A DNA stretch of 40,134 bases from a virus: the UHGV virus genome UHGV-0210680; one strand, given 5' to 3'. This document shows, one piece after another, positions 12,717-38,302 of the stretch; the first letter of the stretch is position 1; every line of letters starts with the position of its first letter. The notes under the pieces are model-generated. The model was given only the letters and a program-made list of their open reading frames with translations, did not search any database and was not told the origin of the DNA. A program made the position numbers and the translations under genes.

Positions 12717-15110
12717 ATGGCTAATTACCGTGATTTGTTAGAGCAGGCTGGCGCACGTTACGGTGTGCCAGAAGGGTTGATGACTGCACTGGGTGCCAAG
12801 GAGTCTTCTTACAACCCTGCCGCAGTAAGCTCCGCCGGGGCTGTAGGATTGACTCAGGTCATGCCTGGGACATGGCGTGATATGGGTTATACCGATGAGC
12901 AAATGCAAAACCCCGAATATCAGGCTGACGCTGGCGCGCGCTATCTGGCAAAGATGTACCAGCAGTTTGGTAACTGGCGTGACGCTCTTCAGGCTTATCA
13001 CGACGGTCCCGGCAACGTTATGAAGGCAAAGCGTGGTGAATATACGCCAGGACCTGAAGGCCGCGGTTACGTTGATGATCGCTTTGCTCAATGGGCGGGT
13101 GACCCGGTGACAGACTCAACAATCGAACAGCGCGCCACCTCTGCAAAGGTACATCCTCAGCAAGACCCTAACAACCCGTTTGCACAACTGGAAGCACAGT
13201 CATCCGAACAAGTATCGGCATCAGGCGTGCAGTCAGACCCAAATAATCCATTTGCTCAGATTGAGCAGCAGGCAGCCAGTCAGCAGCCACCTCAACCCGT
13301 AAGTTCTGTCGCACCGAAACCTGTTCAGCAGCAAGGCGGAATAATGTCTGACCTTGGTAATGGACTTGCTGAAACCGGGCGCGGCTTACTACAGGCAGGA
13401 ATCAACGTAGCGAACATACCTGCTGAACTCACTGATGCTGTAACAAGCGCGGCGGCTTGGGCTGGCGGTAAACTCGGCATTGGCGATGGTACATATCAAC
13501 CAGCACCACGAGTAACAACGCAGGGATTAGAGCAGGACTTTGGCCTTCAGCAAGGCGCGCTGACTCCACAAACGACAGAGGGGAGGGTATTTGCTGAAGC
13601 ATTTCCTTACCTCACTCCTGCTGGCGTTGAGAGAGCGGCAACACAGGCACCAACACTTGCTGGTCGAATTGCTCAGGGGGCAACTCGCCTTCTCGCAGAA
13701 AACGCAGTTGGATCACTTGCTGCAAACAGTATGAAAGATGATGCGGAAGCACTCGCTACCGATTTAGGCGTTGGTGTGCTGGCTGGCGGTGCTATTAACG
13801 CTGCCGGACGTGGATTAGGTGCTGCTTATCGTGGCGTTCGTGGTGCTATTGCGCCAGAAGCGCAGCAGGCTATCAGATTTGCAGAGCGTGAAGGAGTTCC
13901 TCTGCACACCACAGATCTGTTACAGCCTACTTCCCGCGTCGGGAAAATGGCGCAGACGACAGCGGAAAATATCCCCCTGGCTGGCACAAGCGGAATGAGA
14001 GCAACGCAACAGGAAGCGAGAAGCCAGTTGGTGCAGAGATTTGCTGATAAATTCGGTGAGTATGATCCAACTGTTGTTATTGACAGCCTTAAAGCGAAAA
14101 CATCAGGAATTCGTCGTGCTGCAGGGAACCGTCTTGAGCAGGTTCAGAATGCTATGGCTGGAGTAAACATTCAGCCTGCGCGAGCAATTCAGCAGATTGA
14201 TACTGAGATATCTAACCTGCAGAAGCTTGGTAAGGTTGCTGATAACGAGACTATTTCAAAACTTCAGTCATATCGTGATGAGCTTGTTCGCAATGCTGGC
14301 CCTGATGGTCCGGTTAATCTGGATTTGAAGCAATTAAGCGATCTGCGCAGCCAGTTCAGAATGGACGTGAAGGGGGAGCGACCAGTGTTACCAAACCGTT
14401 CCGATGCTGCCATTCAGCGCGTTTACAAGGCAATGACTGACGATATCAATGGTGCCATTGGTCAGAATCTTGGCAACGATACTCTCCGTAAATATCAGCA
14501 GGCCAATGCCGTCTACGCTGACGAAGCGGCGAAACTAAAGAATACCAGGCTGAAGAATGTTCTCATGAAAGGCGATCTGACGCCGGAAGTTGTCAACAAC
14601 ATGCTATTCAGCAAGAACAAATCGGAAATTAAGACGCTGTATAACTCAGTTGGTCGTGTTGGCAGGGCGCAAATGCGCAATGGCATCATTGGAAAGGCGA
14701 TGGAGAAATCAGGTGGTTCCCCTGACCAGTTCCTTCGACAGCTTAACATCCTGCAAAACCAGACTGGCATCACATTTAAAGGTCAGGAAGCCGCTTATCT
14801 GAAAGGATTGAAAAACTACCTGCAATCCACGCAGCAGGCTGCAAAAGCGGCAGTAACAACACCAACAGGGCAGCAAACCATCCCGTTCATTATCGGATAT
14901 GGGACAGCAATGAACCCTGCGACAACTGGCGCAGCGGTAAGCTACGGACTTCTTACTCGTGCCTATGAGAGCGAGTCATTCAGAAATGCAATGCTCCGAA
15001 TGGCAAACACCCCACGCGGATCAACAGCCTTTGAGAAAGCAATGCAGCAGGCACAAAAGGCAATTAACGCTCTGACGCAGGGGGCTAAGTCTGATGCGTT
15101 GTCAGAATAG
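12717..15110 (+). CDS. ejection protein gp16-like with N-terminal lytic transglycosylase (SLT) domain
   Basis: 797-aa ORF at the gene-16 position; the N-terminal ~110 aa carry SLT-like motifs (E-S-S-Y.P.A.S..GA.GL.QVMPGTW...Y); the rest is A/Q-rich, typical of ejection proteins. Confidence 0.75.
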   Translation: MANYRDLLEQAGARYGVPEGLMTALGAKESSYNPAAVSSAGAVGLTQVMPGTWRDMGYTDEQMQNPEYQADAGARYLAKMYQQFGNWRDALQAYHDGPGNVMKAKRGEYTPGPEGRGYVDDRFAQWAGDPVTDSTIEQRATSAKVHPQQDPNNPFAQLEAQSSEQVSASGVQSDPNNPFAQIEQQAASQQPPQPVSSVAPKPVQQQGGIMSDLGNGLAETGRGLLQAGINVANIPAELTDAVTSAAAWAGGKLGIGDGTYQPAPRVTTQGLEQDFGLQQGALTPQTTEGRVFAEAFPYLTPAGVERAATQAPTLAGRIAQGATRLLAENAVGSLAANSMKDDAEALATDLGVGVLAGGAINAAGRGLGAAYRGVRGAIAPEAQQAIRFAEREGVPLHTTDLLQPTSRVGKMAQTTAENIPLAGTSGMRATQQEARSQLVQRFADKFGEYDPTVVIDSLKAKTSGIRRAAGNRLEQVQNAMAGVNIQPARAIQQIDTEISNLQKLGKVADNETISKLQSYRDELVRNAGPDGPVNLDLKQLSDLRSQFRMDVKGERPVLPNRSDAAIQRVYKAMTDDINGAIGQNLGNDTLRKYQQANAVYADEAAKLKNTRLKNVLMKGDLTPEVVNNMLFSKNKSEIKTLYNSVGRVGRAQMRNGIIGKAMEKSGGSPDQFLRQLNILQNQTGITFKGQEAAYLKGLKNYLQSTQQAAKAAVTTPTGQQTIPFIIGYGTAMNPATTGAAVSYGLLTRAYESESFRNAMLRMANTPRGSTAFEKAMQQAQKAINALTQGAKSDALSE

Positions 15111-15199
15111 CTTTTCAAACACCAGGAACGTGCAAAAACCAAATATGTAGAATGCAATATTCATCATATCTCTGTGCATAAATCCTCCGTAACGGATGG

Positions 15200-15460
15200 T
15201 TATCTGCTGTCTTTTTTATATAGCTCCTTGAGCGTATCAAAGACAATTTTCTTAACCATATCAGATTGTTGTTCTGCCATACGCTCTGCATCGTCAATGT
15301 AAACTGATGCAGAGCTTTGTTTATCCAATGATTCTTCAATCGCTGCAATTATCTCTGAGTTAAGCGACCTGTTATTCATCTTCGCACGCAGCTTAATTTT
15401 CGCGTGAAGTTCATGCGGAAGTCTCAAGTGAAACTGCGCCTCGTCGTATTTGCTGTACAT
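15200..15460 (-). CDS. mnt: Mnt repressor (ribbon-helix-helix)
   Basis: 86 aa from the ATG at 15460 (MYSKYDEAQFHLRLPHELHAKIKLRAKMNNRSLNSE...NDAERMAEQQSDMVKKIVFDTLKELYKK) closely matching P22 Mnt; an alternative ATG lies at 15493. The 252-aa ORF in the track is an antisense extension into the tailspike gene. Confidence 0.85.
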   Translation of the reverse strand: MYSKYDEAQFHLRLPHELHAKIKLRAKMNNRSLNSEIIAAIEESLDKQSSASVYIDDAERMAEQQSDMVKKIVFDTLKELYKKDSR

Positions 15461-15595
15461 CCTTGATGCCTCACCAGTTGGGTGGAATGGCATCGTAAAA
15501 CCTACTGTACAAATCAACAATCGTACCGTTTCGGTATGCAACAAACACCAACCGTAGCCACGCTGCGGCGATTCCTTGTATCTGGAGCAAATTAA

Positions 15596-17734
15596 ATGAC
15601 AGACATTACAGCCAATGTGATCGTATCGATGCCTTCGCAACTTTTCACTATGGCGCGTTCTTTTAAAGCGGTTGCCAATGGCAAAATTTATATCGGTAAA
15701 ATTGACACGGACCCCGTAAATCCAGAAAACCAGATTCAGGTTTATGTGGAGAACGAAGACGGCTCTCACGTTCCTGTTTCGCAACCAATCATCATTAATG
15801 CTGCTGGATATCCGGTATATAACGGACAGATTGCCAAATTCGTAACTGAGCAAGGCCATTCTATGGCTGTTTATGATGCGTATGGTGCACAGCAGTTCAA
15901 ATTCCCAAATGTGCTGAAGTACGACCCTGATCAATTTGAGATTAGGCTTTCTAATCAAGACGGCGCTGGTCTTGTTGGGATTATGCCATATGGCACGGTA
16001 CAGGATGCCATCAAATGGGTTGTCCCCGAGGTATTCCCCGGAAGTAATGCGTCAGAAAAATTACAGGCAGCTGTAAATTATGCGGTTGCAAACAAAACGA
16101 GAGTTGTAGCATCAGGTGTGTACGATGTAACAGCCCCCGTCACCATCCCAGGAGACATCATTATCGATGCTTCTACTGGAGAATTTACCTTCAATGGCAT
16201 TGATTATATTTTCCATCCGCTTGGCGCAAAATCAGTAGAGATTATCGGTGGTAAGTTCACCGCAAATGCATACCACACCCAGCGTCCTCAGGTAATTTTC
16301 AATGATTACCCTGATGGGCTGGCGAATTTACCAACGCGCGTGGTGATAAAAGATATGCAATGCTTTAACTGCGGTGTTGGCTACATCATGGTTAACTGTC
16401 AGGACCCAACCAGCGTACATATTTCAGTTGAAAATAACTATTGTACGACTGATGATAATACAGATTTATATATATCAAATTCAGATATGCATCCAGGAGA
16501 AAGCATATTCCCATATTTAACAATACTTGGTGATACGCTTGATTCTGTAGATTTGGGAACACCAAGAAAATCAATGTTCCATGTAACAGGAAATACATTC
16601 GATGTGTTTATGCAATCAGGTTATAATACAGATATATATAAAATAGGAAGCACAACAGTAGGAGGGGAAACAACAGGAAATAGGTTCATAAATAGGAATG
16701 AAGAATCATCATGTGAAATTGATACGTTCACCGGAGGTCTTGAATGTGTTATTGATAATAACACAATGTGGAATGTTTCTGTAAAAGCCATGACGTTATT
16801 AATAAGTGGCGGTGAACGAGTTGGTCTTGGTGGAAGATCATCTATAAGTAATAACGTTTTTCATTTTGAAAAAAACCCACTTAATGATTTTGGAATATGG
16901 TTAAGAACATCACTGGTAAATGTATGTAACAATGTTATTTATTATGTTGGATCTGATAACCCCTCAGAGCAACGTACATTTAACGGAATTTCAGGGCAAA
17001 AATTAGATAATAATAACAATGGATTTGGTGGTGATTGGTGTGCTGGTAATAACGTATCCAACAACATAATTCAAATTATTACAGGTGAAGTTGACAAATC
17101 TGTTAGAGTGCAATGCATCAATCCTACTGATTTCGCTGGGAGCGTTTTTAATGGAAATTGTCTTTTTGGTGGTAATGGTATGGTGATAGATGCAAGACCT
17201 GAAAGAAATAGAAATGTCTGGAGTGGTAATTATATAAGCTCTGGTCTATTTTCTGCTGAGGATATATGGAGAATGAATTCCGCATTCGTTGGTGGAAGTA
17301 ATTATATTGGAAGTTCTTACGATAACTCTGTTCGTGGCCCATATCTTTTAAGAAAGGAAATACCAGCTCAACAAGATGGGAGTATAATAAGAATTGAATT
17401 GGATTATGCGATAAATAATGGATACGCTTCGGACAGATGTCTTTATCTCTTAATGGTAAAAGTTAATGGTGGGATTAAAAATAACTATCAGACATTTGTT
17501 GTCTCTTCTGGAGCTCACGATGCGCAAGATCTAAAGCCAGCAATAGACGAAAGAATAGACCCAAACACAACTGACAACAATTTAAAACAAATATCATTTA
17601 GAGCTGGTTATACAGGTTCTAGTGGGCTAATTGTTTTGCAGGCAAGGGGTAATTATTATTCATCAGGAAATCCACCGACATCTATAGAATATTCTATTAT
17701 ACCGTTAACAGCAAACTTCCCCATGGCATTTTAA
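15596..17734 (+). CDS. tailspike protein (P22 gp9-like head-binding domain plus divergent receptor-binding domain)
   Basis: The N-terminal ~120 aa (MTDITANV.VS.P...SFKAVANGKIYIG.IDTDPVNP.NQI.VY.ENEDGSHV...NVLKYDPDQ) match the P22 tailspike head-binding domain. The remaining ~590 aa are N/G/S/I-rich and encoded by markedly AT-rich DNA. GGAG RBS upstream. Confidence 0.9.
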   Translation: MTDITANVIVSMPSQLFTMARSFKAVANGKIYIGKIDTDPVNPENQIQVYVENEDGSHVPVSQPIIINAAGYPVYNGQIAKFVTEQGHSMAVYDAYGAQQFKFPNVLKYDPDQFEIRLSNQDGAGLVGIMPYGTVQDAIKWVVPEVFPGSNASEKLQAAVNYAVANKTRVVASGVYDVTAPVTIPGDIIIDASTGEFTFNGIDYIFHPLGAKSVEIIGGKFTANAYHTQRPQVIFNDYPDGLANLPTRVVIKDMQCFNCGVGYIMVNCQDPTSVHISVENNYCTTDDNTDLYISNSDMHPGESIFPYLTILGDTLDSVDLGTPRKSMFHVTGNTFDVFMQSGYNTDIYKIGSTTVGGETTGNRFINRNEESSCEIDTFTGGLECVIDNNTMWNVSVKAMTLLISGGERVGLGGRSSISNNVFHFEKNPLNDFGIWLRTSLVNVCNNVIYYVGSDNPSEQRTFNGISGQKLDNNNNGFGGDWCAGNNVSNNIIQIITGEVDKSVRVQCINPTDFAGSVFNGNCLFGGNGMVIDARPERNRNVWSGNYISSGLFSAEDIWRMNSAFVGGSNYIGSSYDNSVRGPYLLRKEIPAQQDGSIIRIELDYAINNGYASDRCLYLLMVKVNGGIKNNYQTFVVSSGAHDAQDLKPAIDERIDPNTTDNNLKQISFRAGYTGSSGLIVLQARGNYYSSGNPPTSIEYSIIPLTANFPMAF

Positions 17735-29370: not shown

Positions 29371-30303
29371 TTAAAGAACCGATTTAACAAGATGGTTTTT
29401 ACGGTACAGACCTATGCGATCATTGTGAATCTCAGTAGTCTCCACTAAAAGAGAAACAATCTGTCCGACCTTGTGTTTTTTTTGTATTAAATCTAGCATT
29501 TCAATCGGATAGGAAGCCTTTAAATGTTCACCACCAACATCAAGCTCCAGCTTCCCATATTTGGATAGAACGACCAGTTCGCCTGTAACCGTTTCAGTAA
29601 TGGGAGGGGATGAAATGGTTGATGTAAGTCTACTCACCAAGTACTTAATTTTATTGGAGTCAATAGTTGCCACCTTGGTGCCATTACTAAATGGACCGGT
29701 CCAACTTGCATCAAATGTTAAGTTGTGTTTATCGCATTCCTCTACGATTCTCTTAAGGCTTACAGTGGAATTGTATCCAATTTCAGCGACGTGATTCATG
29801 AAGTTGTTGTCGTCATCGCTTAACAACAAATCGAATATGCCTTTTACAGCCTTGCTGGGTACTGTTTCTACTAATTCTGCTATTCCTGTAGAGAAGGTGA
29901 CGCCCAATTTTGTAGACCCAGGGGATAAATCAGCCAGCCTGAGGTTTAAGGAGCTTTTCACGTCGTAGGGAACTTTTTTTGAGTCCTTGCCTGAGGCAAT
30001 TTTGTGTGTTGCTCTTTGTATTAGCGCTGCAAGATTTGTTGAAATAGCCCCAAGCAGCTCTAAAGGAATAGAGCCAAAGTCAACCTCAGAGCCTTTCAGC
30101 CGCAGCTCAAAAAAATCGATAAGTGGGTGCCGACTATCTTGCTTTAATTTTTCGGCCTTCAAATCGCTCAGATGAGAATCCATGGAGCGATAAAGAAGCA
30201 TGTCAGCAAAGGACCTGGTTTTGTTTTGCTTCATTGCATCGACTTCTTTTTGAATGAAATCAATGCGTTTATCGCAATTTTTAAACATTGATTTATCATT
30301 CAT
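29371..30303 (-). CDS. hypothetical 310-aa protein, second gene of the rexAB-slot cassette
   Basis: Soluble-looking K/S/L-rich ORF with no recognisable motif; its start overlaps the stop of the upstream nucleotidyltransferase-fold gene by 4 nt (ATGA); AT-rich relative to the lambda-like flanks. Confidence 0.6.
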   Translation of the reverse strand: MNDKSMFKNCDKRIDFIQKEVDAMKQNKTRSFADMLLYRSMDSHLSDLKAEKLKQDSRHPLIDFFELRLKGSEVDFGSIPLELLGAISTNLAALIQRATHKIASGKDSKKVPYDVKSSLNLRLADLSPGSTKLGVTFSTGIAELVETVPSKAVKGIFDLLLSDDDNNFMNHVAEIGYNSTVSLKRIVEECDKHNLTFDASWTGPFSNGTKVATIDSNKIKYLVSRLTSTISSPPITETVTGELVVLSKYGKLELDVGGEHLKASYPIEMLDLIQKKHKVGQIVSLLVETTEIHNDRIGLYRKNHLVKSVL

Positions 30304-30779
30304 AAAAAAATCCTCACTAACCCTTTCGGGTTTTCACTGCGATCAAAACCAAACCAACCGCGCCAGTAGCTACGCCAGTACTCATAATCATAGTTAGGGT
30401 CATCTAAATTCTTCATGAGTAGTAGGACATCAATTTTGTAGTTTTGTTTGATGTAGTTTCGGTCAAGCAAATTATCGACGCGGCCCCGAAGCATGACAGG
30501 TATTGAGTTTATATTGCTATAGTCACATACCAACAAAATATCAATATCATCAGGCTCTGGTTTAGACGTGGTGTATGAACCATCAACCCATATTTCTGTA
30601 AAACAGCCATATTGAGCAGATAATTCTCGAATAGATTCGAGTAGCTGTATAAAATTACAGTATAGCATGCCTCGCCTGGATGATGAAGGAAAGCAATCGA
30701 CACAATACGATTTTAATCCAGCTTCATCCATGTCATGGAACCCTGGCTCAAACAGGGGTGGGTAATTAATTTTATCCAT
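30300..30779 (-). CDS. small nucleotidyltransferase-fold (Pol-beta superfamily / MNT-like) protein, first gene of the rexAB-slot cassette
   Basis: 159 aa from the ATG at 30779 (AAGG RBS upstream); contains the h-G-S...D-x-D signature (IWVDGSYTTSKPEPDDIDILLV) and a later acidic residue (KIDVLLL) typical of minimal nucleotidyltransferases. The ORF track starts further upstream (30827), at a codon that is not ATG by my reading. Confidence 0.55.
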   Translation of the reverse strand: MDKINYPPLFEPGFHDMDEAGLKSYCVDCFPSSSRRGMLYCNFIQLLESIRELSAQYGCFTEIWVDGSYTTSKPEPDDIDILLVCDYSNINSIPVMLRGRVDNLLDRNYIKQNYKIDVLLLMKNLDDPNYDYEYWRSYWRGWFGFDRSENPKGLVRIFL

Positions 30780-30929
30780 AAAAAACCTTGCTATACATTT
30801 GTTTTTTTTTATTAAAAATCTAACCACCGAAATGGTGACGGCAAGATGTTACATGGGGTTACAATCAGCCAATACACCGCATTAAATAATTTTTTCACCA
30901 GCTATGCGCCGACCAGAACACCTTGCCGA

Positions 30930-35536: not shown

Positions 35537-35702
35537 TTGACCAAAATCGAAGTTACGAACAAGGAAGTGTCGAGCGAGCTTTAACGTGCGCTAATTGCGG
35601 TCAGAAGCTGCATGTGCTGGAAGTTCACGTGTGTGAGCACTGCTGCGCAGAACTGATGAGCGATCCGAATAGCTCAATGTACGAGGAAGAAGACGATGAA
35701 TG
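35532..35702 (+). CDS. ninE: NinE-like small protein
   Basis: 56-aa ORF from a GTG at 35532, Cys-rich ([20 protein letters not shown]) with an acidic tail; coupled to its neighbours by overlaps; assigned by position in the nin region. Confidence 0.5.
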
Positions 35703-36418
35703 AGTTAATAAATGGCAATGCCATCAAAATGACAAGCATTGAAATCGCTGAGTTGGTGGGTAAGCGTCATGACAATGTGAAACGTACCATCGAAACGCTG
35801 GCTAAAAATGGTGTTATCCGGCTTCCTCAAATTGAGGATTGTGGAAGAATCAATGGGTTAGGCTTAAATCAAAGTTTTTGTGTGTATGTATTCGAAGGCG
35901 AACAAGGAAAGCGAGACAGTATTGTCGTTGTAGCCCAGTTGTCGCCGGAATTCACCGCTCGCCTTGTTGACCGTTGGCGAGAGCTTGAAGAATCTGCGGT
36001 TAATATCCCAAAAACACTACCGGAAGCGTTGCGCCTTGCTGCTGATCTTGCTGAGCAGAAAATTCAACTGGAAAACCAGCTCGCAATTGCCGCACCTAAA
36101 GTTGAGTTTGCCGATCGCGTTGGCGAGGCCAGCGGAATTTTGATTGGAAACTTTGCAAAGGTTGTCGGTATTGGTCCGAACAAACTGTTTGCGTGGATGC
36201 GTGATCACAAAATCCTTATTGCTTCAGGTTCCCGGCGAAATGTGCCAATGCAGGAATATATGGATCGCGGCTATTTCACCGTAAAAGAAACAGCGGTCAA
36301 CACAAATCACGGAATACAGATATCGTTTACCACAAAAATCACCGGGCGTGGTCAACAGTGGCTGACCAGAAAGCTTCTCGATAACGGAGTGCTGAAAGTA
36401 ACAGGGGAGGCTGCTTAA
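35696..36418 (+). CDS. Rha-family regulatory protein / KilA-C (antirepressor-like) domain protein
   Basis: 240-aa ORF; N-terminus ([33 protein letters not shown]) resembles the Rha phage regulatory domain; C-terminal half resembles ANT/KilA-C antirepressor domains. Confidence 0.6.
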   Translation: MNELINGNAIKMTSIEIAELVGKRHDNVKRTIETLAKNGVIRLPQIEDCGRINGLGLNQSFCVYVFEGEQGKRDSIVVVAQLSPEFTARLVDRWRELEESAVNIPKTLPEALRLAADLAEQKIQLENQLAIAAPKVEFADRVGEASGILIGNFAKVVGIGPNKLFAWMRDHKILIASGSRRNVPMQEYMDRGYFTVKETAVNTNHGIQISFTTKITGRGQQWLTRKLLDNGVLKVTGEAA

Positions 36419-38146: not shown

Positions 38147-38221
38147 GGGTCAGTCGTATAAAGGTCATTACGGAAGGCTGTTAACCTTCTTATCGTGGTT
38201 CGAGTCCACGCTGTCCCGCCA
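38147..38221 (+). tRNA. tRNA-Asn (anticodon GTT), phage-encoded
   Basis: 75 nt folded by hand: 7-bp acceptor stem with one U-U mismatch, anticodon stem GAAGG/CCTTC with loop CTGTTAA (U33, GTT, A37), T-arm CGTGG-TTCGAGT-CCACG, discriminator G and encoded CCA. The anticodon loop and T-loop match E. coli tRNA-Asn; the D-stem is only 3 bp. Confidence 0.6.
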
Positions 38222-38226
38222 AATAT

Positions 38227-38302
38227 GCTGGTTTAGCTCCAATGGTAGAGCAGTCGCCTTGTAAGCGAATGGGTAGCGGTTCAAGTCCGTTAACCAGCAC
38301 CA
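38227..38302 (+). tRNA. tRNA-Thr (anticodon TGT), phage-encoded
   Basis: 76 nt folded by hand: perfect 7-bp acceptor stem GCTGGTT/AACCAGC, D-arm GCTC-CAATGGTA-GAGC, anticodon loop CTTGTAA (TGT), T-arm AGCGG-TTCAAGT-CCGTT, discriminator A and encoded CCA. Confidence 0.75.

Follow-up and report, generated by a model that had tools for sequence, protein, structure and literature searches.

A lone Mnt-family repressor gene and its candidate operator beside the tailspike gene of a P22-like phage genome

The gene 16-tailspike interval

The stretch of DNA analyzed here, referred to as the window, is the virus genome UHGV-0210680 at its full length of 40,134 nucleotides, and it constitutes a complete P22-like (Lederbergvirus) genome that extends from the terminase through the lysis genes. 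It carries, in order, the terminase, portal, coat, ejection protein, mnt, tailspike, acyltransferase, and integrase genes, followed by the early-left genes, c2/cro/cII, the replication genes, the nin region, Q, two tRNA genes, and the lysis genes. The nearest known late region is that of phage IME10, with 96.5% identity across 67% of the first 25 kb. The two tRNA genes (38147-38299, + strand) lie just 3′ of Q, where the late operon begins, as they do in phages L and Sf6. Elsewhere in the genome, two genes on the − strand (29371-30827), which encode a 175-aa DUF6932 protein and a 310-aa protein, match the PADLOC candidate defense pair PDC-M63A/B (E 2.4e-41 and 7.5e-45) and are located directly 3′ of the c2 repressor gene, a prophage-expressed position; Mnt itself has no match in PADLOC.

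The mnt gene lies between a gene-16-type ejection gene and the tailspike gene. The former (12717..15110, + strand) encodes an SLT domain (Pfam SLT, E 2.7e-25), has annotated homologues in Sf101, VSe13, and E. coli M9, and forms the left border of a variable slot. This variable region has been named the "ant moron," which in ST64T, ST104, and Para1 comprises mnt and one unknown gene only (Villafane 2008, PMC2629481). While P22, ST64T, VSe13, and JEP4 all have additional genes between gene 16 and mnt, the window has an 89-bp gap (15111..15199), in which no sieA, orf59a, antirepressor remnant, or convincing terminator was found. The mnt gene follows on the − strand (15200..15460, with its ATG at 15460 and its stop at 15200-15202) and encodes 86 aa. 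On its other side, a 135-bp spacer (15461-15595) leads to the divergent tailspike gene (15596..17734, + strand, ATG at 15596), whose 712-aa product carries the P22 head-binding domain (Pfam Head_binding, E 2e-64). This divergent adjacency of mnt and the tailspike gene over 135 bp had been described exactly, coordinates included, by the original prediction from which this work started. A terminator scan of both strands from gene 16 to the tailspike start returned none; the sole match, at 15672-15684, is within the tailspike gene and scores no better than expected by chance.

An intact Mnt-family repressor

The gene at 15200-15460 had been identified from its letters as a clear Mnt homologue, and domain and structure searches agree. 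The encoded protein consists of an Arc-type ribbon-helix-helix N-terminal domain (Pfam PF03869, E 2.9e-14) and a C-terminal tetramerization coiled coil (Repressor_Mnt, PF11423, E 3.3e-14), and it is 48.8% identical to P22 Mnt. Its PDB matches are to 1mnt (E 1.6e-19, residues 6-79 aligned), 1qey (E 1.5e-8), and 1arq, which is P22 Arc (E 0.002). Arc shares with it the ribbon-helix-helix fold and PF03869, but is a 53-aa dimer devoid of the tetramerization coil, is encoded downstream of Pant, and has another operator. The slot and orientation of the gene, in the gene 16-tailspike interval and antisense to the late operon, are those expected of the Mnt family. The recognition strand reads QFHLRL, and its recognition residues are thus Q-H-R as opposed to the H-N-R of P22 Mnt.

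Homologous mnt ORFs are intact without exception (85/85). The overall dN/dS of 55 distinct coding sequences is 0.135, with dS at ~0.11-0.13; in codons 1-45, which make up the DNA-binding domain, dN is 0.0043 and dS 0.129, a ratio of 0.03. By these sequence measures, mnt is an intact Mnt-family ribbon-helix-helix repressor gene under strong purifying selection, and since that selection is so pronounced in the DNA-binding half, the gene is not a relic.

Two further observations concern the family as a whole. Mnt is a mosaic protein: its N-terminal DNA-binding half is common to the Mnt of JEP4, VSe13, and Serratia, and its C-terminal half, P22-like in the window, is another sequence in those three, from which recombination within mnt near codon 45-50 follows. 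The other observation concerns annotation. RefSeq phage records (NC_027398, NC_004348, NC_002371, and others) name the gene "partition protein ATPase," a propagated misannotation that Sf101 also bears, and in IME10 it is unannotated.

Absence of arc, ant, and sieA

The window has no arc divergent from mnt, no ant, no sar in the mnt-tailspike region, and no strong Pant overlapping operators, all of which are features of immI. Searches of the 40-kb window by tblastn with P22 Arc, Ant, SieA, and orf59a found none of them, the best match being Ant at E 0.1, and the proteins that neighbor mnt in JEP4, VSe13, epsilon34, and Gally matched only mnt itself and c2. A ribbon-helix-helix profile made from seven Arc and Mnt sequences, run against 760 six-frame ORFs, recovered mnt alone (E 1.4e-23), with the next match at E 1.7. 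The earlier statement that no Arc, Ant, or SieA homologue is visible in the window therefore stands on both kinds of search, and no overlooked arc/ant pair emerged from either. At the RNA level, Rfam yielded nothing at E<=1 in 14900-15800 and, at gathering score, only the two tRNAs in the whole window, a result to be read with the caveat that Rfam may have no sar model.

The weak Ant match originates from an ORF of the nin region (35696-36418, + strand) that we considered as an overlooked P22-type Ant and rejected. It encodes a 240-aa protein with Rha and KilAC domains (the latter "ANT," PF03374, E 8e-33) and has no arc partner. P22 Ant consists instead of P22_AR_N and P22_AR_C, and the two proteins have only a 37-residue patch in common. 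The Rha-KilAC protein presumably resembles Roi of HK022.

Predicted promoters of the spacer

The left ~90 bp of the spacer are colinear with the mnt-arc control region of P22 in an alignment with ST64T, Gally, and P22, and nearly identical in IME10, Sf101, VSe13, and JEP4. The Mnt N-terminal domain and the ~80 bp upstream of it move together, also in loci that differ in the C-terminal domain or on the tailspike side. Across 43 distinct spacers, the promoter hexamers, the operator arms, and a hairpin discussed below are nearly invariant.

Promoters were scored with an approximate sigma-70 matrix, which ranked P22 Pant (17.4 bits) and P22 Pmnt (13.8 bits) as top hits. The highest-scoring promoter of the spacer, at 8.8 bits, is a putative Pmnt on the − strand (TTGTTG-17-TACGAT, 15492..15520; −35 at 15520..15515 and −10 at 15497..15492), homologous to P22 Pmnt (TTGAGA-17-TATCAT); its counterparts in ST64T (9.7 bits) and Gally (10.7 bits) likewise come out on top. 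The true mnt start site is uncertain, because in the commonest spacer variant (121 bp, IME10 type) a 2-bp deletion leaves the Pmnt homologue with a 15-bp spacing, and further extended −10 candidates that read leftward appear in that variant. A LexA box in TACTGTACAAATCAACAAT was considered and, judging by eye, rejected: the motif reads CTG-N10-CAA with the CAG half missing, and its conserved CAA corresponds, on the other strand, to the TTG of the −35 of Pmnt.

On the + strand, the position of P22 Pant (TTGACA-17-TATATT) is occupied by what looks like its vestige (15487..15515), namely, ATGGCA (15487-15492) and CAAATC (15510-15515) at a 17-bp spacing. The latter hexamer lacks both key −10 bases, and no tailspike-adjacent type of spacer has both the −11 A and the −7 T, whichever register is chosen. 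These hexamers are outside the top five promoter-scan hits for the window; the best + strand score in the spacer is 6.4 bits, versus 17.4 for P22 Pant, and a consensus promoter scan of the spacer found none. The suggestion that the tailspike gene has become the regulatory divergent partner of mnt is thus not supported: the Pant hexamers are decayed, and the spacer has no rightward sigma-70 promoter above background.

A candidate Mnt operator that follows the recognition strand

A candidate operator dyad, GTACCGTTTCGGTAT (15523-15537), with the core TACC-N5-GGTA, directly adjoins the Pmnt −35 in the place that Omnt takes in P22. Its counterpart in P22, AGGTCCACGGTGGACCT, is the experimentally defined Omnt; a dyad operator of ~17-21 bp beside the promoter of the repressor gene is typical of the Mnt family. 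The spacer had been proposed as the place that would hold any Mnt operator, and a search of 15461..15595 for a related dyad led to this candidate, whose sequence moreover appears to follow the recognition strand of the cognate repressor. The core occurs as a single copy in the 40-kb window and once per locus in six related QFHLRL loci, always upstream of mnt, a Serratia prophage included; in a Citrobacter QFHLRL locus, the dyad arms are slightly variant.

Three Mnt types can be compared in this respect. Where the recognition strand is HFNFRM (P22 and epsilon34), the dyad is GTCCAC-G-GTGGAC, that is, Omnt itself as defined by experiment. Where it is QFNLRL (ST64T, Gally, and ST160), the dyad is GACCAC-N-GTGGTC, with fixed arms and all four bases found at the center. 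The QFHLRL type of the window has TACC(A/G)TTT(C/T/A)GGTA, in which variation is limited to center-proximal positions. The dyad sequence thereby co-varies with the recognition strand, in a series of only three independent Mnt types. Its location at the P22 Omnt position, this covariation, and its single copy upstream of mnt together make a good comparative case for 15523-15537 as the Mnt operator, and from them we infer binding.

Other roles for the dyad were considered and rejected. As an RNA hairpin, the homologous ST64T-type dyad would have a 1-nt loop, the most frequent variant does not keep the closing pair (A/C), and the P22 counterpart is an experimentally defined operator. A trans target is at odds with the single TACC-N5-GGTA in the window and the one in each related locus scanned. 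With neither ant nor arc present and no second dyad, maintenance of lysogeny through repression of an antirepressor in cis cannot apply.

Beyond these loci, a pattern scan of IMG/VR for GTACCRTTTYGGTATG returned at least 120 stretches, 80 of which were analyzed: 48 are window-type mnt modules and 32 are unrelated contexts. The latter include a duplicated promoter-leader cassette (L179 and L184) and a site upstream of a capsid gene (L245); L184 and L245, the two inspected in detail, have no ribbon-helix-helix or antirepressor gene nearby. As a side observation, six IMG/VR stretches of an unrelated phage group, L179 and L184 among them, contain the exact 16-mer GTACCGTTTCGGTATG twice, 515 bp apart. 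Its copies sit in the duplicated promoter-leader cassette upstream of small genes, and there is no ribbon-helix-helix gene among the ORFs listed around it in L184; the repeat is probably a 5′ leader stem-loop and its likeness to the dyad a coincidence.

Hairpins and the tailspike leader

Closer to mnt lies a conserved nested inverted repeat, GATGCC-TCACC-AGTTG-GGTGG-AAT-GGCATC (15465..15494, + strand), which has no second exact copy in the window. It shares nucleotides with both the mnt ribosome-binding site (CCTC, 15469-15472) and the −10 of Pmnt, and its outer arms take the place of the P22 Pant −35. Its predicted fold is more stable on the + strand (−14.9 kcal/mol) than on the − strand (−12.7). 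The QFHLRL and QFNLRL types have the same arms and a freely varying loop; in the inner stem, a C.G pair is replaced by a compensatory U.A pair between Mnt types, and one to three conserved U.G pairs would become A.C mismatches on the mnt-sense strand. Because of the better + strand fold, the compensatory change, and the strand-specific U.G pairs, the repeat most likely acts as an RNA hairpin on the tailspike-sense transcript of the late operon. We also weighed it as a second Mnt operator, a role rejected on account of arms that stay the same despite differing primary dyads and of a pattern of variation characteristic of an RNA hairpin.

The remaining 45 bp of the spacer (15551..15595, + strand) are a generic tailspike leader, or "boundary sequence." Homology to mnt-less phages begins at 15551; from there, the leader is common to the mnt-less HK620, CUS-3, and N7, as well as to epsilon34. 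CUS-3 is annotated "bsq1; boundary sequence" at this point, and the same sequence precedes P22 gene 9. It comprises a leader hairpin (CCGTAGC-CAC-GCTGCGG, 15552-15568, + strand) and the tailspike Shine-Dalgarno sequence (GGAG, 15584-15587, + strand). That the tailspike-proximal third of the spacer is shared with phages devoid of mnt is a second consideration against the tailspike gene as a regulatory partner of the repressor. Both + strand hairpins, at 15465-15494 and 15552-15568, are conserved, have no U-tract, and contain G.U pairs that are mismatches on the opposite strand.

Distribution and known relatives

Leftward mnt next to a rightward tailspike gene, with arc-ant absent, is found in IME10, Sf101, VSe13, JEP4, Gally, ST64T, and ST160, and the spacer is 135 bp long in ST64T and ST160 too. 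Complete E. coli genomes carry window-type mnt with its upstream region in 331 of 5,426 cases; of these 331 carriers, 287 (287/5,426, ~5%) have mnt and the tailspike 5′ end in one contiguous stretch. Both genes are visible in 91 loci from all sources, among which the IMG/VR share was drawn from the best 80 of 221 contigs that encode a relative, and they are divergent neighbors in every one; the spacer is 121 bp in 65 of these and 135 bp in seven. Gaps of 654-728 bp stem from insertions of homing-endonuclease genes shortly after the tailspike start. Four loci have a 728-bp gap, six a 654-bp gap, and one a 660-bp gap; the inserts are HNH/AP2-type genes of 164-179 aa on the opposite strand, after the first ~5 tailspike codons. 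The tailspike start region is duplicated in these loci, and at least three different endonuclease sequences share the insertion point.

A census of 172 mnt loci sorts the divergent neighbor by Mnt type. It is arc in the two HFNFRM loci (P22 and epsilon34), and it is always the tailspike gene in the 92 QFHLRL loci, where a neighbor is visible, and in the 78 QFNLRL loci (ST64T, Gally, and ST160); arc is found next to mnt in 0/170 loci of the latter two types. The mnt-only arrangement has been described for phage L (Zaworski 2020, bioRxiv 10.1101/2020.10.05.325894). The original prediction regarded the locus as an unusual rewiring of a maintenance repressor, a judgment that this comparison does not support: adjacency to the tailspike gene is the standard arrangement for the QFHLRL and ST64T/L types, holds in 287/331 E. 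coli carriers, and has been published, and the P22-like phages ST64T, ST160, Gally, IME10, Sf101, and VSe13, which lack ant, have the same layout. On the evidence of gene content, the locus is a minimal mnt-only version of the gene 16-tailspike variable region, ordinary in layout and already known from the literature.

The degree of kinship differs among the relatives. IME10, Sf101, and E. coli prophages such as that of M9 carry the Mnt allele of the window (96-99% aa identity) in the same module, and M9 is 97.9% identical to the window over mnt, the spacer, and the tailspike 5′ end. Most E. coli and Shigella copies, however, have the 121-bp spacer with its 2-bp Pmnt deletion and another tailspike leader, in contrast to the 135 bp of the window. 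Phages L, ST64T, and ST104, and also ST160 and SE1, resemble the window in that mnt is antisense to the late operon and divergent from the tailspike gene, with no arc, ant, or sieA. ST64T and ST160 share its spacer architecture as well, from the hairpin, Pmnt homologue, and dyad to the boundary sequence, yet the ST64T-type Mnt is only ~56% identical to that of the window and differs in recognition strand and dyad as set out above (QFNLRL with GACCAC-N-GTGGTC vs QFHLRL with TACC-N5-GGTA); between gene 16 and mnt, ST64T has a small extra ORF and a terminator in place of 89 bp only. The P22 immI region is like the window in its two-domain Mnt, slot, orientation, colinear control region, and dyad at the Omnt position, and unlike it in the presence of arc, sar, ant, and sieA, in intact Pant hexamers, and in operator sequence.

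Some relatives carry more. Between gene 16 and mnt, JEP4, E. coli A28, and Serratia have a second, complete module of the immI kind. It encodes a repressor together with a small Arc-like protein, an antirepressor of Bro-N + P22_AR_C make-up, and, farther downstream, one more protein, which has an ORF6N domain in Serratia. VSe13 keeps a 96-aa fragment of the last protein of this module and represents a deletion intermediate.

A proposed autonomous module at the late operon

We favor, with a probability of roughly 70%, a reading of the mnt-only locus as an autonomous module in which Mnt would act on a single dyad and the tailspike gene would be served by late-operon read-through, as opposed to a rewired circuit. 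In the lysogen, Mnt would be made leftward from the Pmnt homologue, and the Mnt tetramer would bind the one dyad at 15523-15537. Because Pant is decayed, arc and ant are missing, and the dyad is unique, this dyad would be the only cis target in the genome, and Mnt would chiefly regulate its own control region. Transcription of the tailspike gene would come from antiterminated late-operon read-through across antisense mnt rather than from an Mnt-controlled promoter. More speculatively, Mnt on its operator may also keep stray rightward transcripts from entering the tailspike and lysogenic-conversion region. The hairpin at 15465-15494 would stand apart from this circuit, as a distinct feature of the tailspike-sense transcript. 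One consideration weighs against the autonomous module: if Pant is dead, the conservation of the operator would have no obvious reason. In P22, Mnt reportedly stimulates Pmnt only indirectly, through shutting Pant, as Vershon and colleagues are said to have found in 1987.

A more far-reaching version of this reading, which we put forward tentatively and think unlikely, would make Mnt, its type-specific operator, and the tailspike-sense hairpin a self-contained, widespread module that, in the lysogen, gates or insulates the tailspike and lysogenic-conversion region against incoming transcription. Such a module would not be a leftover of P22 immunity; instead, the arc-ant of P22 would be the later insertion.

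Alternatively, the Pant-equivalent promoter could have survived the loss of arc-ant and now drive the tailspike gene, with Mnt repressing it in the lysogen. The geometry is that of P22, with the Pant-equivalent −10 just 5′ of the operator and the tailspike ATG 59 bp downstream of it; the operator has been kept though ant is gone; the IME10-type variant has an extended −10-like motif (TGgATAAAT) at this place; and the ant moron of P22 may influence tailspike levels (PMC2629481). We nonetheless find a Mnt-controlled tailspike gene doubtful in view of the Pant-equivalent hexamers (ATGGCA-17-CAAATC), which are degenerate here and defective at the −11 A or −7 T in all tailspike-adjacent types, and of the low + strand promoter scores described above. 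The tailspike gene is, moreover, a late structural gene and, to our knowledge, is transcribed with the late operon in every P22-like phage.

The target might also lie outside the genome. By established genetics, P22 Mnt represses the antirepressor promoter of superinfecting P22, and by the same token, the Mnt of the window might repress an antirepressor promoter, or some other promoter, of incoming or co-resident phages with the same operator and so prevent heterologous induction. A repressor that is under strong purifying selection, yet whose sole cis target is its own promoter, should confer some benefit, and immunity in trans, paralleled in P22, would supply one. The surveys make this improbable, however. 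With arc beside mnt in none of the 170 QFHLRL and QFNLRL loci, no matching ant-carrying phage is known; the antirepressor modules beside mnt in JEP4, E. coli A28, and Serratia each come with a separate ribbon-helix-helix or C2-like repressor and lack the TACC-N5-GGTA dyad; and the IMG/VR scan for the dyad (at least 120 stretches, 80 analyzed) produced mnt loci and unrelated contexts. Classical genetics also counts against it, in that P22 Ant induces L prophages and the Mnt of L therefore does not silence P22 Pant.

Finally, decay of a once complete immI into a remnant of no present function, a possibility raised in the phage L paper (bioRxiv 10.1101/2020.10.05.325894) and in keeping with the degenerate Pant and with the VSe13 antirepressor-module fragment beside mnt, which shows that deletions occur in the slot, appears scarcely tenable and already largely refuted by the intact ORFs (85/85), the dN/dS values of 0.135 and, in the DNA-binding domain, 0.03, the near-invariance of operator arms and promoter hexamers in 43 distinct spacers, and the occurrence of the gene in 331/5,426 E. 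coli genomes.

Implications

The broader significance of the locus is limited: its layout is common and published, and the gene occurs in sequenced phages (IME10 and Sf101) and in hundreds of E. coli genomes. The locus nevertheless raises a small question, namely, what role a maintenance repressor plays in phages without an antirepressor. The phage L study left open whether lone mnt is a remnant or has a new function, and the selection data gathered here answer in favor of function. To the published arrangement, the present analysis adds a concrete prediction of operator and promoter, a three-member series of Mnt specificities, and a flag on the systematic misannotation of mnt as "partition protein ATPase." Should the self-contained module be real, the three Mnt types (H-N-R, Q-N-R, and Q-H-R) and their matched dyads would constitute a ready-made recognition-code series.
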